From a phage, in the sequence record PX880102.1: a stretch of DNA of 64,000 nucleotides; one strand, 5' to 3'. Of the stretch, positions 6,331 through 64,000 are shown piece after piece. Below the pieces are notes generated by a model, which worked only from the letters and a program-made list of their open reading frames with translations, was not told the origin of the DNA and ran no database searches. Position 1 is the first letter of the stretch; each line of letters starts with the position of its first letter. The position numbers were made by a program, and so were the translations under genes.

Positions 6331-6445
6331 AATTCACCTCAAGGAGTATAAAATCCGAATGCAGTTGTTGACCATCCCATCCAATATGGGAAATTTGCAC
6401 CAATGTAAAACATAAGAATATAAAACCAACCGCTCAGTAAATTCA

Positions 6446-6764: not shown

Positions 6765-6789
6765 TTTCTGTTCCTCCGTAGTTGATAGA

Positions 6790-6845
6790 GTAATAATACC
6801 ACAGAGGAACAGTCTTGTAAACAACTTTTTAAAAATATTCGTAAT
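6790..6845 (-). promoter_or_regulatory. T4-type early promoter cassette
   Basis: minus-strand GTTTAC (plus 6817-6822), TATTAT -10, conserved leader ctccgtagttgatag. Confidence 0.55.
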
Positions 6846-7006
6846 AAATGTGAATACCAATCACTACTGCCGAAACTTGTGCAACCCACCACGCACAAGC
6901 AATAAGTACAGAATTAAAAATTTTCATAATAACCTCATCACAAAAGTAAATGTTAAACAAATTACTGGAATACTAATTAACCAAACAAAACACCACCATA
7001 GTGAAC

Positions 7007-7270
7007 TCATAGCTCAATCTCAGCGATTTTCATTTCATTACTATTAATAGCCGCTTTAAGACTATCTGAAAGAATTACATTCCAATGGTCATTCATATGA
7101 CCACTAACTAAGTGTGTAATTTCTTCAGGAGTTGAAAAATAAGGCGTATCAGACTCCCAATGCGATAGTCCCAAGCGAGTATAAATCATACCTTCATCAT
7201 CGCTAGAATATTCAACTGACACAAACTCATCAGTTATTTTATGTTTAGCATAATAAAATTTAAATTTCAT
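7007..7270 (-). CDS. hypothetical protein (87 aa)
   Basis: ORF-track start trimmed to ATG after leader GGAGGAACAGAAAATG. Confidence 0.5.
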   Translation of the reverse strand: MKFKFYYAKHKITDEFVSVEYSSDDEGMIYTRLGLSHWESDTPYFSTPEEITHLVSGHMNDHWNVILSDSLKAAINSNEMKIAEIEL

Positions 7271-7294
7271 TTTCTGTTCCTCCGTAGTTGATAG

Positions 7295-7350
7295 TTGTAT
7301 AGTACCACGGTCCTTGTGGTATGTAAACCGTTTTGTGAAAATTTTTAAAT
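7295..7350 (-). promoter_or_regulatory. T4-type early promoter cassette
   Basis: minus-strand aaaaattttcacaaaacgGTTTAC ataccacaaggaccgtg GTACTATAC; the spacer contains inverted repeat ACCAC...GTGGT. Confidence 0.6.
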
Positions 7351-7902
7351 GGAAAGATACCATCCGTTGTAGTTGCTTTTTCTTACAACCTTACGAAGGT
7401 CTTCTCTATCACCGATGAACTTCGGAGTGTACTGGATGACACCTGGATGAATTTCTTTAGTGTTGAATATAATTATACAGTCCGCGACTTGATGATTTAG
7501 AATGGGCCCTAGATTTATTCCAGAACCATATGGATACTCTCCGCTGCATCCCGTTGTTACCGAAATCCAACGCGAGTCAGTTTGATGTGTCTTAACTTCT
7601 ACACGGAGCCCACAGTATTTTGGATGTGCTAAAACATCCCATGCATACGTGTACGGATCATCGACATCTTCTTGGCCTTTATTGACATATCCGCTTAGCC
7701 AATCTGCCACCACATACTCGGCATACACTGCGATACGGCATCTTTCGATAACTTCTGCCTTATCCTGATTTGGGTTTTGTTTTAAAGAGTATCTCGCAGT
7801 ATCAGCAATTTTGACCTTCATTTCACTGGTCAAATCACTGTTCGATAGGGTAAATGTCGGAATCTGAAATAGTCTCTGTAACCCCGGATTCGTTTTCTGC
7901 AT
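7345..7902 (-). CDS. denB: endonuclease IV (DenB)-like, 185 aa
   Basis: position between the ndd cluster and rIIB plus length as recalled for T4 DenB; start may be the internal Met (MKVKIADTARY). Confidence 0.7.
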   Translation of the reverse strand: MQKTNPGLQRLFQIPTFTLSNSDLTSEMKVKIADTARYSLKQNPNQDKAEVIERCRIAVYAEYVVADWLSGYVNKGQEDVDDPYTYAWDVLAHPKYCGLRVEVKTHQTDSRWISVTTGCSGEYPYGSGINLGPILNHQVADCIIIFNTKEIHPGVIQYTPKFIGDREDLRKVVRKSNYNGWYLSI

Positions 7903-8164
7903 TTAGACTTTCCTTTTTACCGCTGAGATAAGCGTTATATACTTTAAGAGTACCATAATAAATTCGGTCATTTTCATCTAAAGACTCGAGGTCAAGTTCA
8001 TCGAGCTCCTTTTTATCCATGACTATAACATCATTACAGTAAAGAAACCCAAGTTTTTCGTGACCAAACTCAAATTTATTACAGTACACAATATTAGCGT
8101 GATGATTTCCGTGCAGTTTAATCTCTTTTATGTCGGAATCGCCGATATTCATACAATAAATCAT
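7835..8164 (-). CDS. hypothetical protein (109 aa)
   Basis: ORF overlapping the denB 5' end. Confidence 0.45.
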   Translation of the reverse strand: MIYCMNIGDSDIKEIKLHGNHHANIVYCNKFEFGHEKLGFLYCNDVIVMDKKELDELDLESLDENDRIYYGTLKVYNAYLSGKKESLNAENESGVTETISDSDIYPIEQ

Positions 8165-8174
8165 AATTTTTCCT

Positions 8175-8198
8175 TAAAACAAAAGGGCCGAAGCCCTT
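8175..8198 (-). terminator. GGGCCGAAGCCC hairpin terminator (UUCG loop in mRNA)
   Basis: hairpin at 8185-8196 followed on the minus strand by TTTTGTTTT. Confidence 0.6.
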
Positions 8199-8202
8199 TA
8201 TT

Positions 8203-8397
8203 TTACTTGAATTGTGCAATTCTTTTCTCTAGACATTCAGCATAAGATTTCATTGAGATGAACTGTGAAAGCAGCAGTTCTTGCTCAACTGTACTAACCG
8301 TTAGAAACTTCGTGCTTTCTAAAAATTTGCTCAGTGCATTAATTTTGAGCATTAATTGATCGTATTCTTCTTTTACTCGTGCTTGATAACCTAACAT
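8203..8397 (-). CDS. hypothetical protein (64 aa)
   Basis: ORF between rIIB and denB region, bracketed by hairpins. Confidence 0.5.
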   Translation of the reverse strand: MLGYQARVKEEYDQLMLKINALSKFLESTKFLTVSTVEQELLLSQFISMKSYAECLEKRIAQFK

Positions 8398-8413
8398 AAT
8401 TTTCCTTAGTTAA

Positions 8414-8425
8414 GGGCCGAAGCCC
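8414..8425 (-). other. GGGCCGAAGCCC hairpin immediately after the rIIB stop (RNA-stability element or weak terminator)
   Basis: identical 12-nt hairpin; no strong U tract on the minus strand. Confidence 0.4.
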
Positions 8426-9364
8426 TTATTTAAATTGTTCAGTAACGTCTTCAACTACTTCATATTGACAGGTACGCATTTTAGCATCGTTGTAATCAAT
8501 CGGAATTGATACTACATCACGCGGATGCACTTTAACTTTTACAACTCTACTGGTTGAACTACCAAAGTGACGAATATAAGATTTAGAACACACATGCAGA
8601 CCACGAGAACAAGTTTGTGTATCATCGTCATTCACACGAGTACGTGGCATTTTAACTACTTTACCAGGACTGTTATCAAAAGTATTTGAATGGCAGTCAA
8701 AGTAATTGCTGCGAACTACTTTCCAAGCATAGAAGTAGCCATCTTCTGTAATTTCAATATCGTTTGCTACCAAGAAATCAAAGAGTCGAGATACCGCTTT
8801 CTGGCTTGGGTTTTCCAGCAGATTTTCCAAGAACGGAAAATAAAATTCAAAGTTTTCGCCTTTTTCCATCGAATCAAGAATACGATCAACCAAACCAGAC
8901 CGCAATTCAATATTTTGATAGAACAAGCTTCCACCTTCAATTCGAACATCGCCGGAAATATATTTTTCAACAGCGCGACGAACATTAATTTTTTGTGCCG
9001 CTTCTTCTAACTTATCTGCTACGAGCAGATTAAGAATTTCCTGGAAGTTTGAATGAGTATTAGGTGTTGCATTATAAGTTACACCATCAACAGTAATCGA
9101 AATGAATTTTTTAGATGCATTCCAAATAATGTCAGATTTAGCAACTGGAGCAATAACTGCATCGCTATTAACTTTAACTGTAATATCACCGCTAATAGTA
9201 ATTTTAGAGTGTTTAGCTTCTTCAGCATTTTTCAAAACACGACGGATTGTATCAACCGATACACCTTGCCAATCAGCCAATTCCTGCTGAGTATAATTAC
9301 CGCTTGAATACAGTTTAACAATTTCAGCTTGTTCGTTTTTGGTCAGGCATTTAATATTGTACAT
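8426..9364 (-). CDS. rIIB: rIIB membrane-associated protein, 312 aa
   Basis: MYNIKCLTKNEQAEIVKLYSSGNYTQQELADWQGVSVDTIRRVL...; same length as T4 rIIB; adjacent to rIIA. Confidence 0.93.
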   Translation of the reverse strand: MYNIKCLTKNEQAEIVKLYSSGNYTQQELADWQGVSVDTIRRVLKNAEEAKHSKITISGDITVKVNSDAVIAPVAKSDIIWNASKKFISITVDGVTYNATPNTHSNFQEILNLLVADKLEEAAQKINVRRAVEKYISGDVRIEGGSLFYQNIELRSGLVDRILDSMEKGENFEFYFPFLENLLENPSQKAVSRLFDFLVANDIEITEDGYFYAWKVVRSNYFDCHSNTFDNSPGKVVKMPRTRVNDDDTQTCSRGLHVCSKSYIRHFGSSTSRVVKVKVHPRDVVSIPIDYNDAKMRTCQYEVVEDVTEQFK

Positions 9365-9375
9365 AATTTTCCTTA

Positions 9376-11553
9376 TTAGGCCGCAAGGGCCTTCATAGTT
9401 TTAGCGATTTGGGAGACTTCATCATCGCTTAAAGAGCTGCGATAACCGATGAAGTCGGAAACAATACGGAATTTCTTGGTAAACTCAGCAACCATTTTAT
9501 CACTGTTTTTTGAAGCATTATTTGATAATACATCAAAAAGATTAGTTACTGTCCAGATGTCATGACCGATGGTATCTTTTCCACCATTAAAATATACACC
9601 ACGCAGTGAACTAACTATATTAGCGAGTCGTGTATATTCTTCAGAAACTTCATCGGTACTGAAGTACTTCATCATAAAATCTAGTTCAGGATGCTTGATA
9701 ATTTTATCAATATATCGTTGAGCTGAACTTGAATAACCTACATACTTATCATAATCTACAGCATCAAAAGCATCTACATATAAATCACGCAAAGCTTCAA
9801 AAATACATTGGCACTGACCAAGCTCTTTTACCTTTTTCTGCAAAAGCGGACGAATAACATAAAATTCATTAATGCCAATAAGATTAGCCATACGAATCAA
9901 AATATTCATAGATGGATGACAAAGCGATGTAGTACCATCCATAGAGAAAATATCAGAACGATGCATGTACGCTACATAACCAGTAATTTCATCTGCTTCT
10001 GATGTAAGTGTAAATAGTTCCTCTTTTTCCCATCGCCCATCTTTAATTTCAAACTTAAATGCTGTAGCAGCTTTAGGACGAGGAGCTTTACTTTTAACTG
10101 CCTTCGGAATATAACTTTTAACTAAAGCTTCAATTTCTGACAAATAATGAATGTTAACTTCATCACTTTCAAACATTGCCATAATATCAGGGAGTAAATC
10201 AATCTGCGATTCTACTTCCGGATTAATAAACAAAAGACGCTCATTATGATGAATATTCAAAGTGTTATTAAATTCTTTATCATCTAACGCATGCGCTAAT
10301 CCACGGACAATATTAACGCGATTTTTAATATTATCAATAACGATATTAATTTTTGTTGTATTAATACCGAACAGACGATAACTTGATGCAACGGCTGAAG
10401 TTTCATGACTTTGCTTAATGCGTTTCAGTCGAGGGTCAAGATTTACTTCATACACAACTCCTGCATTGCATAGCTTACTATCTGGTTCAAACATGCTTTG
10501 CATCTTCTTATATGACAGATTTTTAGTCGTAAATTTGACTGAATTACTAATCATATAATCTCGAGCAGAATATCCCATCTTCATCAATTCACGGTATGTA
10601 TGACGAGGAGATGTAGATTCTTTAAATCGTTTTACATCTTCATTGAATGCCTTCTCACTAAGCTCTTTAACACGCTCAATAATATTTTTACGAGTACGAT
10701 CATCTAGTGAAAGAGCTTCGCGTGATGGAGCAATATCAAGTGAACCCATTGGAAACTTAATGTAATTCACTTCATTACGGATGCTTAACCAGTTACGGTC
10801 TCTAATAACACCATCGATAGGATAAACAATACCACCGTAGATAGCATATAATCCACCACGATCTGGCCAGTATCTTTCTGGATTTACACCGTAATAATCA
10901 TCAAAATCCGGAAAATAATCAATTTCGCGGTCAAGACCATTAATGATAGCTAAATCTTTGAATGGTCGCATGATATAAGAAACTTCATAAGCAAAGTTTC
11001 TAAAGTCTTTTTCTTCAACTGGAACTACGATTTCAATACCAGTTTTATCATCTGGACCCATTTCTTTCACGAATGTAGGTTTAATTTGTGGACCATCGCC
11101 ATCCATGTAAGCTACATAACCACGAATTTCACCTTTATGATACGAAGTAATACTAAATGTATCAGTATAACTAAACGGAGATTTAGAACCTAAACCAAAT
11201 CCGCCAATGAAATCGTTAGATTCGGCTTTAGATGAACTGAAATATGAATTATACAAACCAGAAGAATTATCATCACCTTGAATATCAAAATCACTCATAC
11301 CCGGACCAAAATCTCGGCAAACAAATCGTGGATCTAAACGTCCAGGAACTTGAATGATAAATTTTTCAGGATTTCCATTGAGAGCATGGGCATCAATCAT
11401 GTTGGTAATCAATTCACGGACTACTGCGCGAATCTTGTTTGTGTACAAATCAGATGATAGAATTTTAAATACTTTAGGAGATGCTGTGATGCTAAATGCT
11501 TTTGATTTAGAACCATTACCAAGAATTGTTTCTTTTTCAGTGGTGATAATCAT
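9376..11553 (-). CDS. rIIA: rIIA protein, 725 aa
   Basis: [56 protein letters not shown]... GHKL-type ATPase-like N-terminus; same length as T4 rIIA. Confidence 0.95.
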
Positions 11554-11563
11554 AATTTCCTCA

Positions 11564-11767
11564 TTAATTCATATTACGCTTAATAACTTCAGCAACTTCT
11601 AGTAGTTCGTCTTTAGTTGCGGTGTCGGATTGAATTTTATCTCTAATATCTTTAAAGCGGTTTTTAAATTCTTCGGCTTCTCCCATATCGAAAAAGCGTT
11701 GAATGATTCTATATTCTCGATGAACTGCTTTATCAAAAAGTTCTAAATTTACTTTATATGATTTCAT
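11564..11767 (-). CDS. rIIA.1: rIIA.1-like small protein (67 aa)
   Basis: position between 39 and rIIA; has its own early promoter. Confidence 0.65.
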
Positions 11768-11799
11768 TCCAATATCCTCATTTGCCCAATTAATTATAC

Positions 11800-11840
11800 C
11801 ACATCCTTGTGGTAAAGTAAACTACTGGCTCATCCATTCT
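11800..11840 (-). promoter_or_regulatory. T4-type early promoter upstream of rIIA.1
   Basis: minus-strand GTTTAC tttaccacaaggatgtg GTATAAT; perfect TATAAT; ACCAC...GTGG inverted repeat in the spacer. Confidence 0.6.
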
Positions 11841-13642
11841 TTACGAAGGTCAGCATTATCTCCCATGAGCATTTCAAAAAGCTCTTTCCAGTTCTCAGGA
11901 AGTTTAACAACATCATATACTGGGTTTTGAATCATCTCACGATATTCAGATTTTTCCAAAGAGCCAAGTCCCTTAATATAACGGATGCTATGTTTAGGTA
12001 GAGCATCTTTGGCACTCTCATATTCAGCGACTGTATAAAACCATTCTTGTTTTTTACCGACCTGAGCGATGATTACAGGAGTTTTGACAAAGCGAATTCT
12101 TCCTTGTTCAAACAGTTCTGGCCAATTACTAAAAAATCCGAGCAGAGAAGGATAAATGCTTCCTAAACCATCATGGTCAGCATCAGTCATAATAGCAATA
12201 TTATGATAATTCAAGTTTTCGGCTTTTTCACCGAGAACTAATCCCGTGATTGCGCAAATATCAAACAGTTCTTTGTTTTTAAGCATATCAGCATATGACA
12301 TACCCCAACTGTTGAGAACTTTACCACGCAATGGATAACCACCGTGAAGTTCTTTATCACGAACATCAATAAGATATCCGATAGCAGAATCACCCTCAGT
12401 CAAGAAAAGAGTAGTGTCAGCATCTTTACCACAAAGATTCGCTTTGATATGTTTATGAACCTTAGCTTTAGAAGCCTTTTTAGCTGCTTTAGTTTCTGCT
12501 GCTTTTTCTGCCGCTAATTTACGGGCCAAAGCAGCTTCAATAATCGGCATTAAAATTGCTTCATTATTTAGAATAGCGCGTGAAATCTTTTTAGCATCAA
12601 GCTGAATATGACTACGAATTTCACCAAAAGGAGAAGTAAGTCGTTCTTTAGTTTGAGAATCAAATCGCATGTTTTTCATATCACGAACAAACATAACGAT
12701 AGTCAAACATTCTTTGACACGTGCTTTAGTTACATCAATTTTGAACTTACGTTTGATTTGTGGAATAAGGTCTTCACAAATATCATCCATAACACAGTCA
12801 ATGTGATGGCCACCATTCTTAGTGTGAATGTTATTCACATAAGTTAATTGACGAAATCCATCCGGTGAACGACCAACAGCAATAGAACAATTTTCTTGTT
12901 CTTGAACAATAGCATGTTCATCATACTGTCGTGCATATTTCTTAAAATTGCCCTGAACCTTTTTACCATTAAAGGTAAATTGAATATCAGGATAAACAAC
13001 AGCAAGTGTCTGGAGACGATCTAGTGTAATGTCAAGATAAACTTGGGACAGCTCATTAGTTTCAAATGACATAAAATCTGGAATGAAAGTAACACGAGTT
13101 CCTTTCCATTTTCCAGGAATAGTTTCCCAGGATTTATTTTCCATGCCATTTGAACAACGAACTACAATATTATTTTGACCATCGCCAGTTTCACCGACAA
13201 ACATCACAGAAAAAATGTTAGTTAAACTAGAACCAACACCATTCATACCACCGGTGACACGTTCTTTATCATCACCGAAGTTACCACCTGCTTTTGGAAT
13301 AGTCCAGGCGGCAACAGGACCAGGAATTTCTTCACCAGTAGGTGTTTTAACCATCGCTTGTGGAATACCGCGACCGTTATCTTCAACTGTTACTTGATTG
13401 TTTTTAATAGTAACATTAATTTTATTCGCGAATTTAAACTTAGTACGAATACCTTCATCTACTGAGTTATCGATAATTTCATCAATAAGCTTAACAAGAC
13501 CAGGTACATACTGAACACTTTCCCATTTACCAAACAGAAAGCGCTCATGCATTTCATTAGCAGAAGAACCAATGTACATGCCGCTACGCTTTTTGATATG
13601 TTCAATATCGCTCAGAATTTTAATTTCATTCTTAATCATCAC
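11822..13642 (-). CDS. 39: DNA topoisomerase II large subunit (GyrB-like ATPase plus TOPRIM) as one ORF, 606 aa (39 and 60 fused)
   Basis: MMIKNEIKILSDIEHIKKRSGMYIGSSANEMHERFLFG... GHKL ATPase motifs; TOPRIM region; a single uninterrupted ORF. Confidence 0.95.
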   Translation of the reverse strand: MMIKNEIKILSDIEHIKKRSGMYIGSSANEMHERFLFGKWESVQYVPGLVKLIDEIIDNSVDEGIRTKFKFANKINVTIKNNQVTVEDNGRGIPQAMVKTPTGEEIPGPVAAWTIPKAGGNFGDDKERVTGGMNGVGSSLTNIFSVMFVGETGDGQNNIVVRCSNGMENKSWETIPGKWKGTRVTFIPDFMSFETNELSQVYLDITLDRLQTLAVVYPDIQFTFNGKKVQGNFKKYARQYDEHAIVQEQENCSIAVGRSPDGFRQLTYVNNIHTKNGGHHIDCVMDDICEDLIPQIKRKFKIDVTKARVKECLTIVMFVRDMKNMRFDSQTKERLTSPFGEIRSHIQLDAKKISRAILNNEAILMPIIEAALARKLAAEKAAETKAAKKASKAKVHKHIKANLCGKDADTTLFLTEGDSAIGYLIDVRDKELHGGYPLRGKVLNSWGMSYADMLKNKELFDICAITGLVLGEKAENLNYHNIAIMTDADHDGLGSIYPSLLGFFSNWPELFEQGRIRFVKTPVIIAQVGKKQEWFYTVAEYESAKDALPKHSIRYIKGLGSLEKSEYREMIQNPVYDVVKLPENWKELFEMLMGDNADLRKEWMSQ

Positions 13643-13691
13643 TTATCCTCGTTTGGTTTCGGGAATATTATACTCCGGCATTCATAAAGCT

Positions 13692-13709
13692 AAAGGCCCG
13701 AAGGCCTTT
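13692..13709 (-). other. AAAGGCC-CGAA-GGCCTTT hairpin
   Basis: 7-bp GC-rich stem; T-run on the plus side, weak U-run on the minus side. Confidence 0.4.
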
Positions 13710-13978
13710 TATTTAAAACGAATAGTTGAATCCTTAAAGAACAGCCCAGAACATACTGTTCCTTCTACTTTCTGCCCGGTAGGTCCAACAGCACGAAATC
13801 CAGTATGTTGGAAATCATTTTCAGAGCAACCGAACCAGTTATATCCAGTGATTTCAATATTCGTAAAACCACTTGATGATAAAATTTTAGTTGCATTATC
13901 AGCATCAGTACATCCTACTAAAGATACTGCTAATACTAATGCTGCGATAGAACGATTAACATATTTCATAATTTTCAC
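13709..13978 (-). CDS. putative lipoprotein (89 aa)
   Basis: signal peptide with lipobox-like LVGC. Confidence 0.5.
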   Translation of the reverse strand: MKIMKYVNRSIAALVLAVSLVGCTDADNATKILSSSGFTNIEITGYNWFGCSENDFQHTGFRAVGPTGQKVEGTVCSGLFFKDSTIRFK

Positions 13979-14349
13979 TTAAATTTAATGGCTTGAAGGA
14001 GACTAATAATTCTCAAACGGCTTCTTTCATCTTTAACTGTAAAAGAAAGAGGGTCGCCAGATTTCATGGTAATAGTGCATTCAAAATCAAAATCTTCAGT
14101 GACTTCTTCGAAGAAGTCAAATTCTTCATCATAAATTAGAACACTACTTTGCAGACTGTGAAGAGTTTTTCCAGCATTTCTGCTAACTGCTGTACTAATC
14201 ATTGTAACATTATGACCTTTCATATCTTCAACGATAAATTCACTAGTCAATATTACAGCATTAATAGAACTATTCCTATTACTAGCAGAAAGTAGAAATT
14301 TCTTTTCTTCGCCTTCGCGAATACGATACTTCTTACCAATTTTAAACAT
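13975..14349 (-). CDS. hypothetical protein (124 aa)
   Basis: ORF translationally coupled to neighbours. Confidence 0.5.
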   Translation of the reverse strand: MFKIGKKYRIREGEEKKFLLSASNRNSSINAVILTSEFIVEDMKGHNVTMISTAVSRNAGKTLHSLQSSVLIYDEEFDFFEEVTEDFDFECTITMKSGDPLSFTVKDERSRLRIISLLQAIKFK

Positions 14350-14351
14350 AA

Positions 14352-14528
14352 TTACCCTTTAAGTAAATCGTAAAATCCACCATTCACATGCTTAGGAGCA
14401 GAAGGCCGACGAGTAGACAAACGATGACATTTAGGACAAACATCATTTTCTCGTTCAGAAATCTTTTTAATTTTTTCATATTCATGCCCGCAATCTTCGG
14501 ATTGGCATGTATAATCATACATTGGCAT
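14352..14528 (-). CDS. zinc-ribbon protein (58 aa), FmdB-like CxxC...CxxC
   Basis: MPMYDYTCQSEDCGHEYEKIKKISERENDVCPKCHRL...; SD AAGGAATAA; not in ORF track. Confidence 0.5.
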   Translation of the reverse strand: MPMYDYTCQSEDCGHEYEKIKKISERENDVCPKCHRLSTRRPSAPKHVNGGFYDLLKG

Positions 14529-14530
14529 AA

Positions 14531-14956
14531 TTATTCCTTAAAATGGGCTTTCAGCATCTGATACAAAGACCACGCCTGTTCATTATTTTCAATAGTAACT
14601 TTCATGACCGGGAATTCTGTGAAATCTTCTATCTGTTCTTGCTCTTTCTCTTCCTGCTCTTGCTCTTCGGCTGCCTGGTATGGATTTTCCACTTCATCAA
14701 AGAACACAGCTTCGCTCGTTGAAAGCCAGATAAAATCTTCATCCAAAATATCTTTACCAGAAGATAACGCCAATTTTCCACTAGATGTCACAAGTTTAGT
14801 AGGACGACCAAGATAGTCAATATCTGTAACTCTAAAAGGTTCCATACCAAGACGACGTGCATAAATTCCGTTTTCAGTATGGTCCTTGATAAAATCTTCT
14901 TGAGCTTGTTTATTTTTAAATTGATACCATTTATTAACTTCAAATTTAATAGCCAT
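14531..14956 (-). CDS. goF: acidic protein (141 aa), GoF-like by position and size
   Basis: position after 39.x genes; [12 protein letters not shown] acidic stretch. Confidence 0.45.
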
Positions 14957-15171
14957 TAATAAGTTTCCTTCCAGTAAGTTGTGCCATCTTCAGTAATTTC
15001 ACGAAACACACCATAAATTGGTTGTTTATCACCAACCTTTTCATACACATAAACCGAAGTCAAGTGAGTAAACTTAACAGTATGTTCCTTTTGAACTACT
15101 ACCAAATCTGGATCGAATAATACATCTTCAAATTCGTCATTAGTGCAGTTCTGAACAATTTTACGTTTCAT
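14956..15171 (-). CDS. cef: hypothetical protein (71 aa), Cef-like by position and size
   Basis: position and length only. Confidence 0.4.
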
Positions 15172-15184
15172 TACAATTTCCTCA

Positions 15185-15454
15185 TTAATTGAACAGTGGA
15201 GCGATGCGTTTCAGAAGAGTAGCAGCACCTTTGGCGAATTTTACATCATGAAAAACAGTTTCTTCTTCTGTTACAACACGAGCTTTAATGTTTTCACAAT
15301 CCCAATTTTTGCGAACAATCTTCAAAAGCTGCAGTAAATCTTTACATTCAGCAATATCGATAACACATCCACGAGAATCTTCCATTATCGCACGATAACC
15401 GTAAGCCATACCATAATCGTTGAAAGATTGTTCGATGATAATTAAGTTTTCCAT
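15185..15454 (-). CDS. hypothetical protein (89 aa)
   Basis: ORF-track start (TTG) trimmed to the ATG after SD GGAGAATAAA. Confidence 0.5.
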   Translation of the reverse strand: MENLIIIEQSFNDYGMAYGYRAIMEDSRGCVIDIAECKDLLQLLKIVRKNWDCENIKARVVTEEETVFHDVKFAKGAATLLKRIAPLFN

Positions 15455-15494
15455 TTTATTCTCCAAGTTGTTTTCTGTATCAGTAGTTGATATT

Positions 15495-15550
15495 GATATA
15501 GTACCATAATCAACTACTGATGTATATAGTTTTATGAAAAAATTTTAAAC
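15495..15550 (-). promoter_or_regulatory. early-promoter-like cassette with degenerate -35
   Basis: minus-strand aaaattttttcataaaact ATATAC atcagtagttgattatg GTACTATAT, then conserved leader. Confidence 0.4.
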
Positions 15551-15551
15551 T

Positions 15552-16040
15552 TTATGCATAAAGAGCTTTGCTATAGTGTTTAATCCAGCTTTCAGGAATG
15601 ACTTTGTATGTTCCTAAAAATACCACATTATACAGCTTAACACCGTCTTCTACCCACTGATCGGTAATGTATGCGCACATAGCACGAGTATAAACAGCCA
15701 CACCATCATCTTTGATAAATTTAAATTCACAAGGAGCAATGAACTTAATAGCCTGACCGAGTTTCCACTTAAAGTCTACACCTACATGCGAAGTATCAAT
15801 CGTTTCAATTCCTTTAGCAGGAACAGCTTTCAAAAACGCAGACTCAAGAAATTTCGCACGAACATAGCCAAACTGAGGTTTAGACTTTCCATCTTTAGGA
15901 ATGATACGCACTTTTACTTCAGAATCTTCATCTTTAACGCCATGTTTAAGCTGAATGCTTACAATTTCAACCAATTTTCCTGCTGCTTTAGAGCGGGATT
16001 TATCAGATACACGAGCTAATTCACCAATATTAATAATCAT
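15552..16040 (-). CDS. motB: MotB-like protein, 162 aa
   Basis: length and position upstream of the goF/cef group; own early promoter. Confidence 0.65.
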   Translation of the reverse strand: MIINIGELARVSDKSRSKAAGKLVEIVSIQLKHGVKDEDSEVKVRIIPKDGKSKPQFGYVRAKFLESAFLKAVPAKGIETIDTSHVGVDFKWKLGQAIKFIAPCEFKFIKDDGVAVYTRAMCAYITDQWVEDGVKLYNVVFLGTYKVIPESWIKHYSKALYA

Positions 16041-16079
16041 AGTTATCTCTCACTTGTTAAAAAGATTTTATACTCCACA

Positions 16080-16135
16080 GGACCATTATACTCTGGTCCC
16101 AAGAGTTTGTAAACTATTAATTCAAAATAGCTACC
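16080..16135 (-). promoter_or_regulatory. T4-type early promoter upstream of motB
   Basis: minus-strand GTTTAC aaactcttgggaccaga GTATAATGG; -35 at plus 16107-16112. Confidence 0.6.
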
Positions 16136-16659
16136 ACTGCACTACGAGGTACTACACTAAAATCACCCGCATGAACAACGTTCAGAAGTTCAACACCATC
16201 TTCAATCCACTGGTCTGTTACCCAACCACAGACCGAAATAAATGGGGTCTTGATAGCTACAGCACGAGTTAGAAGGTCAGTAGGATCGCATTCTTGGAAG
16301 AGGATAAGCTCTGCTTCAAAGACTATAGTTTTAATTACTTCATCATTATCTAAGCGTTGTGCTCGAATCACGTAAGCTTTATTCTTATCATGCCAATTAC
16401 TTTTTGAAAAACTTTTAACCACAAACTCGCCTTCACCCAAAACACTGGTCAATGCTTTATAACCCAAACTTAGTTCAGTAGTTTTAATTTCAGTTTCAAC
16501 CAGTTTGTAGGTTTTGCCAATTTCGATGGTCCGAGCAGTCATAAAAGTTTCCTTAATTTCTAATGGTTTAACAAGAGTGCCGTACATGCTTGCTATATCC
16601 ATATCAAATATTTTATCTATAGGATTTGGGGTGTATTCAGGATTATAATTAAATTTCAT
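16117..16659 (-). CDS. hypothetical protein (180 aa) with C-terminal domain paralogous to MotB
   Basis: CGWVTDQWIEDGVELLNVVHAGDFSVVPRS aligns with MotB CAYITDQWVEDGVKLYNVVFLGTYKVIPES. Confidence 0.55.
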   Translation of the reverse strand: MKFNYNPEYTPNPIDKIFDMDIASMYGTLVKPLEIKETFMTARTIEIGKTYKLVETEIKTTELSLGYKALTSVLGEGEFVVKSFSKSNWHDKNKAYVIRAQRLDNDEVIKTIVFEAELILFQECDPTDLLTRAVAIKTPFISVCGWVTDQWIEDGVELLNVVHAGDFSVVPRSAVVAILN

Positions 16660-58958: not shown

Positions 58959-59486
58959 TTATGCGAGTACCGTCTTTAACCGTTCTTCAAACTTCCGAAG
59001 AGTATTTTGGCGTTCAGCTCTTTGCTTTTTGTAAGTTTCAATACGCTCTGAAATGAGAGTGTATCGTTCATTTACTGATTCTTTCATAAAATCAGGAATT
59101 TCACGAGAAGCTTTAATCTCGTCAAATTTATCAATAACAGCTTGCTCTTCAGCAATTAAGTTATCATACATCAAAATATCTTTCTTGATGAACTCAATAT
59201 CTTCTTGAGTTACACGAGATAACTTAGATGCTTTATCCTTTTTGTACTGTTCGTTAGTATCACGAGACCAGTGTAATGTACGATTTTTATTCGTATTCTT
59301 GTAAATTTCTACAATACCAATCTCATCAATAATAACGATCCAATTCCAACGGGATTTGTAAATTTGTCCTCCATCAACCGTGATTTCACCTCCGATTGAG
59401 ATGTCATTAAAGAACTTGCTTTGTGCTTCAGATTTAAATTTACCATCGTTGTAATTTACCAGGTTGAAAATATCTTTAGCGTTCAT
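58959..59486 (-). CDS. hypothetical protein (175 aa) with coiled-coil C-terminus
   Basis: ORF behind an early promoter. Confidence 0.5.
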   Translation of the reverse strand: MNAKDIFNLVNYNDGKFKSEAQSKFFNDISIGGEITVDGGQIYKSRWNWIVIIDEIGIVEIYKNTNKNRTLHWSRDTNEQYKKDKASKLSRVTQEDIEFIKKDILMYDNLIAEEQAVIDKFDEIKASREIPDFMKESVNERYTLISERIETYKKQRAERQNTLRKFEERLKTVLA

Positions 59487-59509
59487 TTTGTGTTCCTCCG
59501 TAGTTGATA

Positions 59510-59570
59510 GTTGTATAGTACCACAGAGGAACAGTCTTGTAAACCACTAAAAGAAACTTCTTTCACAATT
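59510..59570 (-). promoter_or_regulatory. T4-type early promoter cassette
   Basis: minus-strand GTTTAC (plus 59538-59543), -10 TACTATAC, conserved leader ctccgtagttgatag. Confidence 0.55.
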
Positions 59571-59861
59571 TTTTCCACTGAACCAGGCGCTCACTGCTTT
59601 CTTAGTCTCAGGAGCGGTGTTATCCATAAACCATTCAAAGGCAGCCTTTTTATGATTCTGGAGGGCTTCTCGGGCTTTAATCTGCTCACGGTCTATTAAC
59701 ACTAACATATGAGCCTTTCTTGTCACCATGGGCTTCTTATGATTTTTTGAATACTCCCAATCATTTGTCCATCGCATCGTTGTTGCGAATTGAAGTACAG
59801 CTTCTTTAATCTTAGTTTCGTAAATTTCACGAGCCTTTGAGTATAACATCACTACCTCCAT
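59547..59861 (-). CDS. hypothetical protein (104 aa)
   Basis: ORF. Confidence 0.5.
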   Translation of the reverse strand: MEVVMLYSKAREIYETKIKEAVLQFATTMRWTNDWEYSKNHKKPMVTRKAHMLVLIDREQIKAREALQNHKKAAFEWFMDNTAPETKKAVSAWFSGKNCERSFF

Positions 59862-59951
59862 TTACCAGTTTAATTCTAGTCATCTTTTTAATGGCAGTCC
59901 ATATAATCTATTTCTGAACTGCCTTTTTTGTCTTAGAAGGCCTCTTATGAA

Positions 59952-60920
59952 TTATTTCAGAAGAGTAACCTCAGCGATTTCTTCCCAACCGTTTTTGTCG
60001 GTCATAATAAAGTCAGCAAGATAAAGAGCAGTACGCAGTGAAACATTGCGTAAACGATTAACATTGACTTTCATCCATGATAGTGCTTTATAAGTTTCTT
60101 CATCAGAAAGACCGCGCTTTTGCATCATGTCAGTTGAAAGAATAACATCTTCAACCCTGACCATAATTTCTTCATTAGTGTGAACACCCAAATCCAAATA
60201 AACTGAGCGGGACACTAATGCTTGTAAATGTGGAGCAAGTTTAGTACCACGGTCTAATTCGCGGTCAATGTCAACGTTTGTGATAAAAACAATCGTTCCT
60301 TTAAATTCAAACTCACGCTCAATGCCTTTTTCTTCTAAGTAAGAAGACGCAGTGCTCCAGCAGACTTTACGGGTCTCTCCGGTGTCCAGAGCAGCTTTTA
60401 GAAGATTAAGAATGTCCATATCAGAGAAAACATCCACATCATCAATCAAAAGGACAGAATTCTCTTCACGATTATTCCAAAGCTGCTCATAAAGACCAAT
60501 ACCAGAGATTTTACCATTAATGCTTTTATATTCAATGTATCCAATATCATTTGCTTTATTCAAAGCTTTATCTAAAGAATACGTTTTACCAATACCTGCT
60601 GCGCCAGAGATAATTAATGAACGAATATTTCCATTAATAATACCATTCGTCATCATTCCCATAACATTAAATCTTTTATTAATGCGGGTTTTCATATCTT
60701 CATATGATTCTTTAACTTCTTCAACTTTTACACCATCATATGAAATATCTGATTTGTAAACCCAAACACCGCGACGCTTACCGTCAATTTCAACAAAAAC
60801 TTTACCATCTCCTTGTGCATCTACCGGAGCATTATCTGGGAACCATTCGCCTAAGAGCTCAAAAGTTCCAGAGATTTCTTTACCGAAGTAGATACCCTTA
60901 TTGATAGTTACAGTTTTCAT
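59952..60920 (-). CDS. P-loop ATPase (Walker A GAAGIGKT, Walker B LLIDDVD), 322 aa
   Basis: motifs read directly; ORF-track start (TTG) trimmed to the ATG after the conserved leader. Confidence 0.55.
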   Translation of the reverse strand: MKTVTINKGIYFGKEISGTFELLGEWFPDNAPVDAQGDGKVFVEIDGKRRGVWVYKSDISYDGVKVEEVKESYEDMKTRINKRFNVMGMMTNGIINGNIRSLIISGAAGIGKTYSLDKALNKANDIGYIEYKSINGKISGIGLYEQLWNNREENSVLLIDDVDVFSDMDILNLLKAALDTGETRKVCWSTASSYLEEKGIEREFEFKGTIVFITNVDIDRELDRGTKLAPHLQALVSRSVYLDLGVHTNEEIMVRVEDVILSTDMMQKRGLSDEETYKALSWMKVNVNRLRNVSLRTALYLADFIMTDKNGWEEIAEVTLLK

Positions 60921-60949
60921 TTTATTCTCCAAATCCGTATCAGTTGATA

Positions 60950-61010
60950 GTTGTATAGTACCATAAAGCTTTATGCTTGTAAACCGTTTTGTGAAAAAAT
61001 TTTGAAATAA
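60950..61010 (-). promoter_or_regulatory. T4-type early promoter cassette
   Basis: minus-strand aaaattttttcacaaaacgGTTTAC (plus 60978-60983), -10 TACTATAC. Confidence 0.6.
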
Positions 61011-61032
61011 AAAAGGGAGCCCGAAGGCTCCC
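61005..61032 (-). terminator. rho-independent terminator downstream of the nucleotidyltransferase-like gene
   Basis: GGGAGCC-uucg-GGCTCCC hairpin followed on the minus strand by TTTTTTATTT. Confidence 0.7.
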
Positions 61033-61034
61033 TA

Positions 61035-62048
61035 TCATTTATAATAACTTCGGTGGTTTTCAAGATAAACCCTCTCAAGGAAGTCATCCCAGAAACCCAT
61101 ATCTACTTTTTGCTGCATACCGTTCTTAGAAGCTTCAATGGATGCTGCTTCTACTTGATCGACCACATCTTCCAAAAACTCTTGAACTGTTTTAAACGGA
61201 TGTTTACCCAACTTCACGTCGAGAATAAATGGAGCATCTTGAAGTGGATAAATCAAGTCGCCAGTTTTATAAATTTCCAATAGTTGAAGTCCACCACGAC
61301 AAGCATGACTCAAAGCTTTCCAGTCAATGCCCTCATTCGCTTCAGCCTTACGAGCACGTTCGCCGTATTCAGCATCAAGTTTATTCAAAGATTGCTTAAG
61401 CTCAATAAGAGAAAGCGTTGTCTGATATTTACGACCCAACACTGTGTAAAACGTCTGTGGGCCTGTTTTCTCATGATTATGAAATACCCATTCACAGAAT
61501 TCGTTCTCTGGAAGACGATGCTTAATATCTTCAATCTTAGTTCGACGTTGCTTAATGGAACCGTCTTCTTGATAATCAACCCACTGATCAGGGATTTGAT
61601 TAACTACTTTCAATACATCACGTAATGCGGCCAAACGAGAACCCTTGACGCCGTATTTAGAAGCTTGCTTGCGAACATATCCTAAATAGGATTTCATGTT
61701 AGTCGTATAAAAACGAGAACGGTTGTCTTGAATAAACTTCCATACATCAGGCAAATCAGATTTAACTACTAGTTCCGGTGGAGTGTGGAGCATATCCAAT
61801 GCTACAGTTTCACCATCTGCTGCTAATTTAAAGAAATACTTAAGACTGTATAGTTCATGGTCAATATCATCTTTAGTGTTTTTAGATGATGTGTTGTTAG
61901 TGTTTTTACTCATATGCTCTTTAACATTTCCGATAAGAATATCACGAGCAGGAGGAACAAAGATTTCTTTAAAATCTACATCAGATTCTGGAGTAGAAGT
62001 TCCATAAAGATGACTACCAAAATAGCTTTTCATTACTGTTTTCATCAT
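61035..62048 (-). CDS. nucleotidyltransferase-fold protein (Pol-beta superfamily motif GS-x10-DVD), 337 aa
   Basis: N-terminal YFGSHLYGTSTPESDVDFKEIF matches hG[GS]-x9-13-Dh[DE]h; candidate third acidic residue in VALDML. Confidence 0.55.
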   Translation of the reverse strand: MMKTVMKSYFGSHLYGTSTPESDVDFKEIFVPPARDILIGNVKEHMSKNTNNTSSKNTKDDIDHELYSLKYFFKLAADGETVALDMLHTPPELVVKSDLPDVWKFIQDNRSRFYTTNMKSYLGYVRKQASKYGVKGSRLAALRDVLKVVNQIPDQWVDYQEDGSIKQRRTKIEDIKHRLPENEFCEWVFHNHEKTGPQTFYTVLGRKYQTTLSLIELKQSLNKLDAEYGERARKAEANEGIDWKALSHACRGGLQLLEIYKTGDLIYPLQDAPFILDVKLGKHPFKTVQEFLEDVVDQVEAASIEASKNGMQQKVDMGFWDDFLERVYLENHRSYYK

Positions 62049-62506
62049 TCAGCCTTATATTCAATAACAGGACATACTTTAGCTTTACGAGCTTTTAAAA
62101 ATTCGACGATAATCGATTTCTTGGGTTGAATAGGAGGTAAACCTTTATACGCTCTATCAATATTTTCTACGTGTAAAGCATAATCCTTTTTCCATTTATA
62201 ATCTTTATATTTTTCATGCAAATGTGCAGGAATAACAAATGAACCGATAATAAGTAAAACAACCAAAAGCGCAAGTATAAATGCCGATGGAAGAAGAGTC
62301 CATAAACTACCGAAAATAAGCCAACGTTGTAGGCTTTCTGCACAAATAATTGTTAGCCCTACAAGTATAGCACATCCAAAAATAGAAACGAAAAATGTAG
62401 GAATGGCAATAGACCAAAAATATGCGCATAGTGTCTTAGGTCGTTGCCATTCATCGTTAAACAATTTGAATAATTTATAATGCCAAGAGTTTTCATTAAT
62501 AATCAT
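62045..62506 (-). CDS. membrane protein (153 aa, about 3 TM)
   Basis: hydrophobic segments; ATGA coupling to the downstream nucleotidyltransferase-like gene. Confidence 0.5.
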   Translation of the reverse strand: MIINENSWHYKLFKLFNDEWQRPKTLCAYFWSIAIPTFFVSIFGCAILVGLTIICAESLQRWLIFGSLWTLLPSAFILALLVVLLIIGSFVIPAHLHEKYKDYKWKKDYALHVENIDRAYKGLPPIQPKKSIIVEFLKARKAKVCPVIEYKAE

Positions 62507-62508
62507 AA

Positions 62509-63030
62509 TTATCCTTTCATTGAAGGCGTAACAGTTGTTAAATACTTAATCATAGCTTCAGCTTCTGATTTTGATAATGAAATTTCTCCATTGTTTTGAC
62601 GAATAGAAATAAAATCCGGATGACGGTCACCACCAGCTTTTAAAACACACATATAAGTATCAACTTCATCTTCAATATTTGAAATGATTGAAGCAGTTCC
62701 ACATGAATGCGGTTTTTGATAAATCAATGCAGCTTTTCTTCCGCCATTTGACTGTTCATAAACTTTTAATACATCAAACAAATCACTTCTTTTATCAATA
62801 GCTAAAATGTTATTTTCATCTTCAATGTTAAATCCTTCGGATACTTCATAAAGTGTCACCCATAAATCGCCAATATCAATAACAGCGTTCACTTTTCCAT
62901 GACTTTCAAGAGCATGACAAATTTTCTTGATTTCGTCATAACTCATTTTAATAATATCATCTCCTTGACTAAGAAAGATGTCATTTTTAAATTCAACACG
63001 AATTAAACCACTTCCACTTGAAATAAACAT
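62509..63030 (-). CDS. hypothetical protein (173 aa)
   Basis: ORF; paralogous C-terminus to the next gene. Confidence 0.5.
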   Translation of the reverse strand: MFISSGSGLIRVEFKNDIFLSQGDDIIKMSYDEIKKICHALESHGKVNAVIDIGDLWVTLYEVSEGFNIEDENNILAIDKRSDLFDVLKVYEQSNGGRKAALIYQKPHSCGTASIISNIEDEVDTYMCVLKAGGDRHPDFISIRQNNGEISLSKSEAEAMIKYLTTVTPSMKG

Positions 63031-63036
63031 ATTTCC

Positions 63037-63594
63037 TCACTTTGAAATCATAGTTGGAATGACAGAATCAAGATAAGTCTTTAGCGCAATAGCTTCGTCT
63101 TTGGTAAATGTGACAATATGCGATCGAAAATCATCAATTTGACGAATAGTTAAGACATCACCATCTTCATAGCATTTTGATACGTTTAAAACAGTTTCAT
63201 CATTCTGATTGCAAGCGTTAGTAATAATAGCATTGCAATTTTTAAGCCATTTTAAACTATGTTTTCTTTCATTAGAATAATAAAAATATTTAATCTTAGC
63301 TATAAAACTATCCCAATGGATAACTGATAAACACATTGACTCACTGTTAATATTAAATCCTGGGCATGAAGAATAAAAATGAATTTTGTGCTCATCATTG
63401 ATGCTTACTATTTTATCAGTATAAGGATATTCAATTTGGGTTAAATGAATGATTTCACTAGGCGTAAAATATAGCATATCGTCTTCTTGCGTCAAACGAT
63501 ACATGTTATTTACTTTTTCTATAGCCAATTCGCCAAAAAGCGGACTAACTTCTAATACTAATCGTTTCATATTGATTCTCTTCGACTCACTCAC
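63037..63594 (-). CDS. hypothetical protein (185 aa); GTG start with SD AAAGGAG
   Basis: ORF; C-terminus VTFTKDEAIALKTYLDSVIPTMISK resembles ISLSKSEAEAMIKYLTTVTPSMKG of the neighbour. Confidence 0.5.
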   Translation of the reverse strand: MSESKRINMKRLVLEVSPLFGELAIEKVNNMYRLTQEDDMLYFTPSEIIHLTQIEYPYTDKIVSINDEHKIHFYSSCPGFNINSESMCLSVIHWDSFIAKIKYFYYSNERKHSLKWLKNCNAIITNACNQNDETVLNVSKCYEDGDVLTIRQIDDFRSHIVTFTKDEAIALKTYLDSVIPTMISK

Positions 63595-63729
63595 AATTAC
63601 ATACTCCTTTGAATAATATCAATAATGTTGTTCACCAGATTATAAGTAAACATTGGGTAATTATATTGAATCATCACATACACAACAAACAAAACTTTCA
63701 TTCTCTTCTCCTTGGCAGTTGACAAGATT

Positions 63730-63785
63730 ACTATACCATAACCTTGCCAACTTGTAAACTATTAAATGACGTTTTCAATAAAATT
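63730..63785 (-). promoter_or_regulatory. T4-type early promoter
   Basis: minus-strand GTTTAC aagttggcaaggttatg GTATAGT. Confidence 0.5.
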
Positions 63786-63935
63786 CTGAAGCTTTGTGTG
63801 AGCATCAACCATGATTTTCATTTCTTCCTTTGCGAAAGCTGTACCTCTTTCTCGAGCAGAATATTCATAGTCAGAAACTGCATTAGCATATTCTTCAATT
63901 AGCTTCATTAAAAACATCTGCTTTTCAGTTTTCAT
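63765..63935 (-). CDS. hypothetical protein (57 aa)
   Basis: MKTEKQMFLMKLIEEYANAVSDYEYSAREGTAFAKEEMKIMVDAHTKLQNFIENVI-like ORF with SD GGTGGA; not in ORF track. Confidence 0.4.
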
Positions 63936-64000
63936 TATTCCACCTAATCATTTCAAGGTATTGAACTAACTTAGCTTTGGATTTATCCAAATCCTTTTTA

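Follow-up and report, generated by a model that had tools for sequence, protein, structure and literature searches.

The nrdC.11-nrdC.10 locus

The DNA analysed here is a 64,000-nucleotide stretch of phage sequence (record PX880102.1), referred to below as the window, and the main subject is the orthologue of the T4 gene nrdC.11 that it carries, a nucleotidyltransferase (NTase) gene for which RNA-end repair, not signalling, is the best-supported function. The window is Tequatrovirus (T4-like) DNA with ~97% identity to known isolates, and its region 59800-62700 aligned over the full length at 97-98% identity to numerous genomes of this genus, ECO4, teqskov, Shfl2 and NR1 among them. In annotated relatives and in T4, the two large genes of this region are named nrdC.10 and nrdC.11. 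An earlier note on this DNA, made from the letters alone, had placed three open reading frames (ORFs) on the minus strand, encoding a membrane protein (62045-62506), an NTase with a GS-x10-DVD signature (61035-62048) and an ATPase with the motifs GAAGIGKT and LLIDDVD (59952-60920); all three ORFs were found, with the motifs as described. Homologues of the NTase, the ATPase and the membrane protein occur in 1518, 1312 and 852 phage records, respectively; none of the three is a chance ORF.

61035-62048, minus strand: NrdC.11 orthologue, 337 amino acids (aa), long-form RlaP-family (PF10127) Pol-beta nucleotidyltransferase (ORF, homology, Pfam, AlphaFold2 model, hhalign)
59952-60920, minus strand: NrdC.10 orthologue, 322 aa from the ATG, with a beta-rich N-domain (residues 1-61), an AAA+ ATPase module and a lid domain (ORF, T4 and NR1 annotation, phrog_1250, AlphaFold2 model, Foldseek)
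62045-62506, minus strand: membrane protein, 153 aa, PHROG 944; two hydrophobic helices, C-terminal tail basic (ORF, phrog_944, hydropathy)

The correspondence to the distal nrdC.x genes of T4 that had been suggested from gene position holds for nrdC.11 and nrdC.10 but not for the membrane protein, which lacks a T4 orthologue because T4 has the HNH homing endonuclease gene mobD at that site, between nrdC.11 and mobD.1. In GenBank and RefSeq records of T4-like phages, the orthologues of NrdC.10 and NrdC.11 are widely labelled 'thioredoxin' and in a few cases 'prohead core protein' or 'HNH homing endonuclease'. No thioredoxin signal was found in Pfam for either protein, and the label looks like a name transfer from the unrelated gene nrdC.

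NrdC.11 as a long form of RlaP

The NrdC.11 orthologue shares 98% identity with NrdC.11 of T2 and T4, the T4 orthologue being annotated as a nucleotidyltransferase in RefSeq, and it falls into phrog_388 (nucleotidyltransferase) in PHROGs. In Pfam it matched PF10127, RlaP ('RNA repair pathway DNA polymerase beta family'), with E=3e-11 and a score of 43.9 bits against a gathering cut-off of 23, the match spanning positions 23-142 only of the 249 in the profile. An exhaustive HMMER search returned 826 representative clusters at E≤1e-30, a number that rose to 3410 at E≤1e-3, and the best-scoring clusters among the matches listed were mostly full-length, at ~320 aa. Conservation was assessed in 62 diverse homologues sharing 34-55% identity with the query, every one of which also matched PF10127 (best E=2e-19). 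Judged from these sequence comparisons, NrdC.11 is almost certainly a member of the RlaP family. A sequence search of NrdC.11 and NrdC.10 against the chains of the Protein Data Bank gave nothing useful. The elements recognized in NrdC.11 are given below.

61974-62018, minus strand: Pol-beta signature G11-S12-x10-D23-V-D25, with the nucleotide-binding loop and two of the three catalytic carboxylates; G11, S12, S22, D23 and D25 are invariant in the 62 sequences
61860-61862, minus strand: D63, third catalytic carboxylate, in predicted strand 62-68 (invariant in 62/62, strand in the AlphaFold2 model, aligned with D88 of short RlaP)
61323-61622, minus strand: insertion of ~100 residues (~143-242), running from the end of the long helix through a beta-rich subdomain (strands 155-209) into the start of the return helix (hhalign, MAFFT, AlphaFold2 model)
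61296-61319, minus strand: motif K244-x3-H248-x2-R251 of the C-terminal helical domain, preceded by R231 and D242

The Pol-beta NTase fold proposed for the 337-aa protein in the earlier note was confirmed by the PF10127 match, by the invariance of G11, S12, D23, D25 and D63 and by the AlphaFold2 model, which had a predicted local distance difference test (pLDDT) score of 94.4 and comprised a minimal NTase core (residues 1-115), a long helix (119-150), the beta-rich subdomain and a helical C-terminal domain (214-336). The predicted catalytic triad of NrdC.11 is D23, D25 and D63. Loss of the acidic triad in homologues had been named beforehand as a finding that would speak against this fold, and all three aspartates were retained in 62 of the 62 sequences. 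The same note had offered the motif VALDML as the third acidic strand, which proved incorrect: its aspartate, D85, is 94% conserved and sits in a predicted helix (81-87), the invariant third carboxylate being D63. In the C-terminal domain, R231, K244, H248 and R251 are invariant in the homologue set.

Since the Pfam match of NrdC.11 was partial and its isolated C-terminal half matched no Pfam family, the protein was compared profile to profile with 27 short canonical RlaP sequences (~250-270 aa) taken from bacterial loci. In hhalign, residues 4-287 of NrdC.11 aligned with positions 42-248 of short RlaP with a probability of 98.3% and E=1.9e-14, a span that includes both the NTase core and the C-terminal domain. 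Specifically, D63 aligned with the invariant third aspartate D88 of short RlaP, K244 and R251 aligned with the invariant K166 and R173, and residues 243-287 fell on the short C-terminal domain. The alignment contained one large gap, in which residues ~143-242 of NrdC.11 lacked a counterpart, and the same gap was seen in a MAFFT alignment. The two forms are linked by a 338-aa Deferribacter homologue, whose PF10127 match extends from position 2 to position 246 of the 249. The position of the gap, the shared residues and the Deferribacter bridge together argue that NrdC.11 is an RlaP carrying an insertion of ~100 residues, and within residues 139-227 no position reached 80% conservation.

NrdC.11 was also compared with the characterized enzymes of Pseudomonas. 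The structure of the P. fluorescens enzyme, PfRlaP, shows an NTase domain, a C-terminal helical domain and three conserved aspartates (bioRxiv 10.64898/2025.12.29.696909). NrdC.11 resembles Pseudomonas RlaP in its PF10127 membership, the GS...DxD signature with a third aspartate, the C-terminal K...R motif and the two-domain plan of NTase core and helical domain, but it is ~90 residues longer, its NTase core being separated from the C-terminal helices by a beta-rich insertion of low conservation. As a modest addition to what is known of the family, NrdC.11 is thus, on the alignments and the predicted structure, a distinct long form of RlaP with a large insertion.

Genomic context of the long form in bacteria and phages

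The bacterial relatives of NrdC.11 were examined in a scan of one genome per species, using an alignment led by an Asticcacaulis homologue, which yielded 80 long-form loci from many phyla, many of them on short contigs. The Asticcacaulis protein was the best plasmid match (35% identity over 96% of the query), and its gene lies in an operon of the order Hen1-Pnkp-long RlaP-short RlaP. The long-form gene of Deferribacter is preceded by RtcB in the same orientation. In 17 of the 80 loci, Pnkp or Hen1 (10 and 9 loci, respectively) or RtcB (8 loci) was encoded within 8 kb of the long form; RtcA also recurred nearby, and a Ro60/TROVE protein was present in 6/80. Short RlaP was encoded directly downstream of the long form in 36/80 loci, often with overlapping ORFs (L134-L207, e.g., L175:8001-9787 and L128:6001-7790), and this conserved pairing points to distinct tasks for the two forms or to joint action. 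An uncultured Nitrosospira contig (L207, ~3555-16623) carried a one-strand RNA-repair island with Ro60/TROVE, RtcB, RtcA, long RlaP, short RlaP and Hen1, and Pnkp a few kb further, which combines a 3'-P ligase and a 5'-P ligase repair system. The bacterial long forms are embedded in RNA-ligase repair operons, as is Pseudomonas RlaP, which is encoded in rtcB-rlaP-rtcA operons. A second modest addition is that not just the short but also the long form of RlaP sits in bacterial Pnkp/Hen1 and RtcB/Ro60 islands, often beside a short RlaP.

This context bears on whether NrdC.11 acts on something other than RNA. Enzymes that nucleotidylylate a small molecule or a protein, such as the kanamycin and lincosamide NTases or the MntA-type AMPylating antitoxins, were among its structural matches, at a distance (8-14% identity, Foldseek E≥3e-3) that reflects a shared minimal architecture of NTase and helical domain. 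Against KNTase, LinB, MNT-HEPN and the Hailong protein HalB, NrdC.11 showed 8-17% identity and no Pfam or NCBIfam match above cut-off; their substrates (antibiotics, proteins, polymerization of free dNTPs) and gene contexts also differ from those of NrdC.11. NCBIfam gave no informative match, the MntA model scoring 13.3 bits against a cut-off of 60, and no HEPN toxin gene is a neighbour. Neither the proteins nor the DNA of E. coli were labelled by Pseudomonas RlaP (10.64898/2025.12.29.696909), and the bacterial homologues keep company with RNA-repair genes, so that a small-molecule or protein substrate is very improbable. Even less probable is the production of a free oligonucleotide or cyclic-nucleotide signal or decoy, for example a mimic of the HalB oligo-dA that would keep a host defence effector off. 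The HalB match was limited to the common NTase core, the sequence family being RlaP and not HalB; a PADLOC scan gave no hit; and the bacterial homologues lie in RNA-repair operons, not in defence islands with HalA-like effectors. No CD-NTase or cGAS, CCA-adding enzyme or poly(A) polymerase appeared among the top structural matches of NrdC.11, and the Cid1 poly(U) polymerase was matched only at a probability of 0.07-0.09. The suggestion in the earlier note of a signalling-nucleotide synthase, a nucleotide-modifying anti-defence enzyme or an NTase of the toxin-antitoxin type was thus not supported, given the negative PADLOC scan and the lack of a significant MntA match and of a CD-NTase or CCA-adding structural match.

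In phages, clustering of the genes around 78 NrdC.11 loci revealed no recurrent functional partner. The neighbours reflected T4-type synteny (tk, rI, mobD.x) together with lineage-specific genes for Dcm, NadV, Prs, NatV and a UvrD-like helicase. In Aeromonas/Vibrio-type T4-like loci (L048-L070, L078 and L081), NrdC.11 is encoded near a Dcm-like cytosine methyltransferase and NadV/NAMPT-like, Prs-like and NMNAT-Nudix-like genes, which are candidates from a reading of their sequences, and NrdC.10 is locally absent. In metagenomic phage loci (L039-L043) the gene order around NrdC.11 differs from T4 synteny, the homologue lying between a ~630-aa protein without an obvious motif and a ~530-aa Walker A protein resembling a UvrD/PcrA-type helicase.

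The relation of the NTase gene to its immediate neighbours was examined through the transcription signals of the region, which are listed here with the genes upstream.

61014-61033, minus strand: intrinsic terminator hairpin with an 8-bp stem (6 GC pairs), a tetraloop and a T run, ending the NTase unit (terminator scan)
60955-60983, minus strand: promoter-like site TTTACA-17-TACTAT with an upstream TG, sigma-70/T4-early-like, 5' of nrdC.10 (promoter scan, consensus match only)
63730-63758, minus strand: promoter-like site TTTACA-17-TATAGT with a 10/12 match and a TG extension, probable start of the NTase unit (promoter scan and the sequence itself)
62509-63594, minus strand: two tandem y05I/MobD.1-like paralogues of 173 aa and 185 aa (62509-63030 and 63037-63594; Pfam PF24449 and PF24448)

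The terminator hairpin and the early promoter that had been noted between the NTase and ATPase genes were recovered at 61033-61014 and 60983-60955. The hairpin reads AGGGAGCC-TTCG-GGCTCCCT on the minus strand from 61033 to 61014, followed by a T run, and was the sole terminator-like site across 59400-64000. The whole nrdC.11-nrdC.10 intergenic region, terminator and promoter included, is identical in T4. In Mosigvirus-type relatives the pairing of the hairpin is kept despite changes on both arms (GGGAGCC/GGCTCCC to AGGAACC/GGTTCCT, or GGCC/GGCC), and the -35 element GTTTAC of the nrdC.10 promoter was invariant in the six phages aligned. The ATPase gene, which starts 114 nt downstream of the NTase gene and beyond the terminator, is preceded by a GGAG Shine-Dalgarno sequence and by its own promoter-like site, and is a separate transcription unit as predicted from these signals. 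No terminator-like site was found by the scan between the promoter at 63758-63730 and position 61033. The NTase gene is probably the last gene of a longer unit starting at this promoter and comprising a small ORF, the two y05I/MobD.1-like paralogues, the membrane gene and the NTase gene; ORF spacers in the unit carrying the paralogues measure 2-6 nt, and the stop codon of the membrane gene overlaps the start of the NTase gene in an ATGA (62045-62048). The earlier description of three translationally coupled genes in one unit is therefore accurate for the membrane and NTase genes, which overlap, but not for the ATPase gene, a point that the note itself had half conceded. A second promoter-like site with the same hexamers and spacing as that of nrdC.10 (TTTACA-17-TACTAT plus TG) lies at window positions 59515-59543 on the minus strand, upstream of nrdC.8, and the match between the two sites suggests that early promoters of this type recur along the nrdC.x block. 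In Shfl2 (L001, ~5170-5270), ~33 bp corresponding to the -10/leader part of the nrdC.10 promoter region are duplicated between nrdC.11 and nrdC.10, which accounts for the longer annotated nrdC.10 ORF of that phage.

These signals, together with gene distribution, address the proposal that the membrane protein, the NTase and the ATPase work as a single module of three components, such as a device for anti-defence or signalling. The order membrane-NTase-ATPase on one strand recurs across many T4-like genera, the membrane gene lies upstream in ~45/78 NTase loci and the ATPase gene downstream on the same strand within 8 kb in 37/78, and in the window the membrane and NTase genes share the ATGA overlap. 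However, a terminator and a separate promoter split the NTase from the ATPase; their distance varies between 0.1 and 3.3 kb, with differing small genes or homing endonucleases in the gap; and 41/78 NTase loci lack the ATPase within 8 kb. Conversely, ATPase loci from more distant phages (L092-L125) lack an NTase within the same distance, one contig having both genes ~30 kb apart (L063, L093). The membrane gene is absent from T4, neither partner recurs beside bacterial long-form RlaP, and the counts in Klebsiella phage records differ (286 for the NTase, 149 for the ATPase, 132 for the membrane protein). A three-component module is thus largely refuted by distribution, and we consider it very improbable. 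The functional three-gene cluster of the earlier note accordingly falls away, in view of the separate ATPase unit, the 37/78 co-location and the replacement of the membrane gene by mobD in T4. As a third modest addition, the NTase system includes neither the ATPase nor the membrane protein.

NrdC.10 was nevertheless characterized as far as its sequence allowed. T4 and NR1 annotate the ATPase orthologue as NrdC.10, and it matched phrog_1250, of unassigned function, with E=1e-166. An alternative start, a TTG at 60932, lies four codons upstream of the ATG, and the annotated length of 325 aa in T4 suggests a start at this upstream TTG. Conservation was assessed in 31 sequences with 55-89% identity to the query.

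60582-60605, minus strand: Walker A motif G106-AAGIGK-T113; G106, A107, G109, G111 and K112 invariant
60432-60452, minus strand: Walker B motif LLIDDVD (residues 157-163); D160, D161 and D163 invariant

Further invariant residues are N215, R238 (in an SRS motif) and R291/R296. From their positions, N215 would be sensor 1, R238 in SRS resembles the arginine finger of the clamp-loader SRC motif, and R291/R296 would belong to the lid. In the AlphaFold2 model (pLDDT 89.6), an N-terminal beta domain of ~60 residues is followed by the AAA+ core with its helical lid. In Foldseek, NrdC.10 matched ORC1/Cdc6, RuvB, subunits of replication factor C (RFC), Hda and NtrC1 with a probability of 1.0, and NtrC1/PspF and NSF were about equal to the others, at E ~1e-5 and template modelling (TM) scores of 0.35-0.46. 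All Pfam AAA matches were below the gathering score, PHROG clamp-loader matches were weak, and the best NCBIfam match, Hda, scored 14.7 bits against a cut-off of 194.8. NrdC.10 thus shares Walker A and B, a sensor-1 asparagine, an SRS motif and a lid containing conserved arginines with the clamp-loader, initiator and RuvB AAA+ ATPases, but differs from them in its unique N-terminal beta domain of 60 residues; it is a generic AAA+ ATPase for which no family-level assignment is possible. Neighbour clustering of 43 NrdC.10 loci revealed no conserved partner, and the distribution of the ATPase among NrdC.11 loci disfavours a functional link to the NTase. Among phages, NrdC.10 is widely conserved.

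The membrane protein matched phrog_944 with E=1.5e-50 and contains two hydrophobic segments (residues ~27-56 and 63-94). Its gene is directly adjacent to the NTase gene only in Tequatrovirus and Mosigvirus-type genomes, and the protein is a variable neighbour. Both y05I/MobD.1-like paralogues matched PF24449 (N-terminal) and PF24448 (C-terminal) with E=1e-22 to 1e-38. Pfam describes these two families as putative transcription factors, and T4 has only one such gene, mobD.1, plus the homing endonuclease gene mobD.

A proposed role in RNA-end repair

Biochemical information on the family comes from Carruthers, Fatma and Huang (bioRxiv 10.64898/2025.12.29.696909), who reported that RlaP of P. fluorescens and P. 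aeruginosa adds one or two nucleoside monophosphates (NMPs), or their deoxy counterparts (dNMPs), to RNA 3'-OH ends. The enzymes did not act on DNA or proteins, preferred Mn2+ and, as substrate, the 5' half of a mimic of cleaved tRNA, and raised the aminoacylation of tRNA repaired after the loss of one nucleotide; RlaP was proposed as an antidote to 'smart' ribotoxins such as RloC, and T4 NrdC.11 was named as an RlaP, without an assigned function, in a different cluster of the sequence-similarity network (10.64898/2025.12.29.696909). RloC excises the wobble nucleotide and was proposed by Davidov and Kaufmann in 2008 to frustrate repair by T4 Pnk and Rnl1 (PMC2610378). Iyer et al. (2021) found RlaP and RNA ligases to be distributed alike among jumbo phages and predicted that RlaP restores nucleotides lost to RloC (PMC7824862), and the idea of end rebuilding by RlaP is also credited to Burroughs and Aravind (2016), as cited in later papers. 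An NTase match of nrdC.11 to COG3541 and a weak AAA match of nrdC.10 had already been noted by Nolan et al. in 2006 (PMC1524935). NrdC.10 and NrdC.11 are, then, catalogued T4 genes, and RlaP is a described and recently characterized family that has been linked by name to T4. An already characterized function of the T4 orthologue had been set in advance as a finding against the first proposal; the family and the naming of T4 NrdC.11 within it meet that description in part, T4 NrdC.11 itself being covered by membership only.

Taking these data together with the conservation of the catalytic residues, we propose, at a probability of about 0.6, that NrdC.11 is a long-form RlaP that rebuilds RNA ends between Pnk and Rnl1. 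In this scheme nrdC.11 would be expressed early, as the last gene of a unit with two MobD.1-like proteins and a small membrane protein, and neither NrdC.10 nor the membrane protein would be required for NTase function. D23, D25 and D63 would hold two divalent metal ions, probably Mn2+, and NrdC.11 would use NTPs to add one or two NMPs, without a template, at the 3'-OH of a broken RNA. During infection its place would be between healing by Pnk, in which the 2',3'-cyclic phosphate is removed and the 5' end phosphorylated, and sealing by Rnl1, a 5'-P/3'-OH ligase; this placement is in keeping with the 3'-OH product, which suits such a ligase. The nucleotide trimmed from a cleaved tRNA by a host RloC-type anticodon nuclease would thereby be put back, and ligation would then give at least some functional tRNA. 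The Pnk (pseT) and Rnl1 (rnlA) pathway of T4 counters the anticodon nuclease PrrC by healing and sealing but cannot replace a lost nucleotide, a step that NrdC.11 may add. The three genes are dispersed in the genome. The parts of this scheme differ in strength. By analogy with the characterized enzymes, RNA 3'-end nucleotidyl transfer by NrdC.11 is likely, at clearly better than even odds, and the specific anti-RloC repair role has somewhat less than an even chance; that NrdC.11 has the same activity, cooperates with Pnk and Rnl1 and targets RloC-type lesions is inferred.

NrdC.11 might instead tail RNA 3' ends for other purposes, such as the repair of trimmed tRNA 3'-CCA ends or the marking or stabilization of phage or host transcripts. 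The chemistry of the family, one or two NMPs on any RNA 3'-OH with little NTP specificity, would allow this, as would the labelling by RlaP of full-length species of tRNA and rRNA size in total RNA from E. coli (10.64898/2025.12.29.696909). The insertion of ~100 residues could confer a different RNA specificity, and nrdC.11 does not lie beside repair genes in T-even phages. The bacterial long forms, however, adjoin Pnkp/Hen1, RtcB/RtcA and Ro60, which belong to break repair and not to CCA-adding or polyadenylation systems, and neither a CCA-adding enzyme nor a poly(A) polymerase was among the top structural matches. The preference of characterized RlaP for the 5' half of a cleaved-tRNA mimic (10.64898/2025.12.29.696909) also favours broken RNA as the substrate, and tailing for such other ends is considered unlikely.

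The co-occurrence of NrdC.11 with Rnl1 and Pnk was assessed from genus-level counts only, by name of the host genus. The counts for NrdC.11/Rnl1/Pnk were 286/287/286 for Klebsiella, 83/83/83 for Shigella, 75/77/77 for Aeromonas, 69/69/70 for Acinetobacter and 56/56/56 for Enterobacter, a near-equal distribution of the three over the enterobacterial, Aeromonas and Acinetobacter T4-like phages. In the same order of genera, NrdC.10 gave 149/76/48/72/36, not tracking NrdC.11, and gene 32 gave 323/89/80/70/59. Synechococcus was absent from the ten most frequent names for NrdC.11, Rnl1 and Pnk, and 378 Synechococcus-phage records were found for gene 32. The NrdC.11, Rnl1 and Pnk counts are weakly consistent with a shared pathway.

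The short canonical RlaP was found in 80 phage records, 55 of them Pseudomonas by the first word of the organism name and none from Escherichia, Shigella, Acinetobacter or Aeromonas phages. Among the matches listed, the phages with short RlaP had genomes of ~260-360 kb, except for one weak match in a 131-kb Fusobacterium phage. T4-like phages carry the long form only and jumbo phages the short form only.

Several observations weigh against a role of NrdC.11 between Pnk and Rnl1. No RNA-repair gene (Rnl1, Pnk, Pnkp, Hen1 or RtcB) was found anywhere in the 64-kb window or, in T-even-type loci, at a distance of up to 8 kb from nrdC.11. Rnl1 or RtcB was encoded within 8 kb in 3/78 phage loci, all divergent, and in T4 itself rnlA and pseT lie ~80 kb from nrdC.11. 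NrdC.11 also differs from Pseudomonas RlaP in having no adjacent ligase gene in T4-like phages, its putative partner being the 5'-P ligase Rnl1 and not RtcB. The co-occurrence is poorly discriminating because NrdC.11, Rnl1 and Pnk are all near-universal in these phages, as seen from the comparison with gp32, and few independent events lie behind the counts, so that their support for a shared pathway is weak. At the protein level, NrdC.11 has ~16% identity to short RlaP over the aligned columns and carries the large insertion, its C-terminal half taken alone has no Pfam match, and the RlaP enzymes that have been assayed are short forms and fall into another cluster of sequences (1a, as opposed to 5). 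Carruthers, Fatma and Huang also note that untemplated addition would mostly yield wrong products (10.64898/2025.12.29.696909). Finally, T4 lacking the stretch from nrdC.11 through mobD.3 still grows on laboratory hosts (PMC9825161), a result that fits an accessory role and for which no phenotype is given.

Because the rebuilding idea has been published for RlaP in general, with T4 NrdC.11 named there, the locus is to be regarded as a convenient genetic test bed and not as a discovery. A more speculative and on balance doubtful extension is that NrdC.11 is the missing third tRNA-repair enzyme of T4, its insertion positioning the cleaved anticodon loop so that the wobble nucleotide is re-inserted before sealing by Rnl1; T4-like phages would thus resist RloC-type nucleases, and the bacterial pairs of long and short RlaP (36/80) would represent a division of labour between two end-rebuilding activities. 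If true, this would answer a question that dates from 2008, namely whether phages competent in tRNA repair overcome RloC, whose removal of the wobble nucleotide apparently serves to defeat heal-and-seal repair, and a third step, rebuilding, would join the textbook Pnk/Rnl1 pathway of T4.

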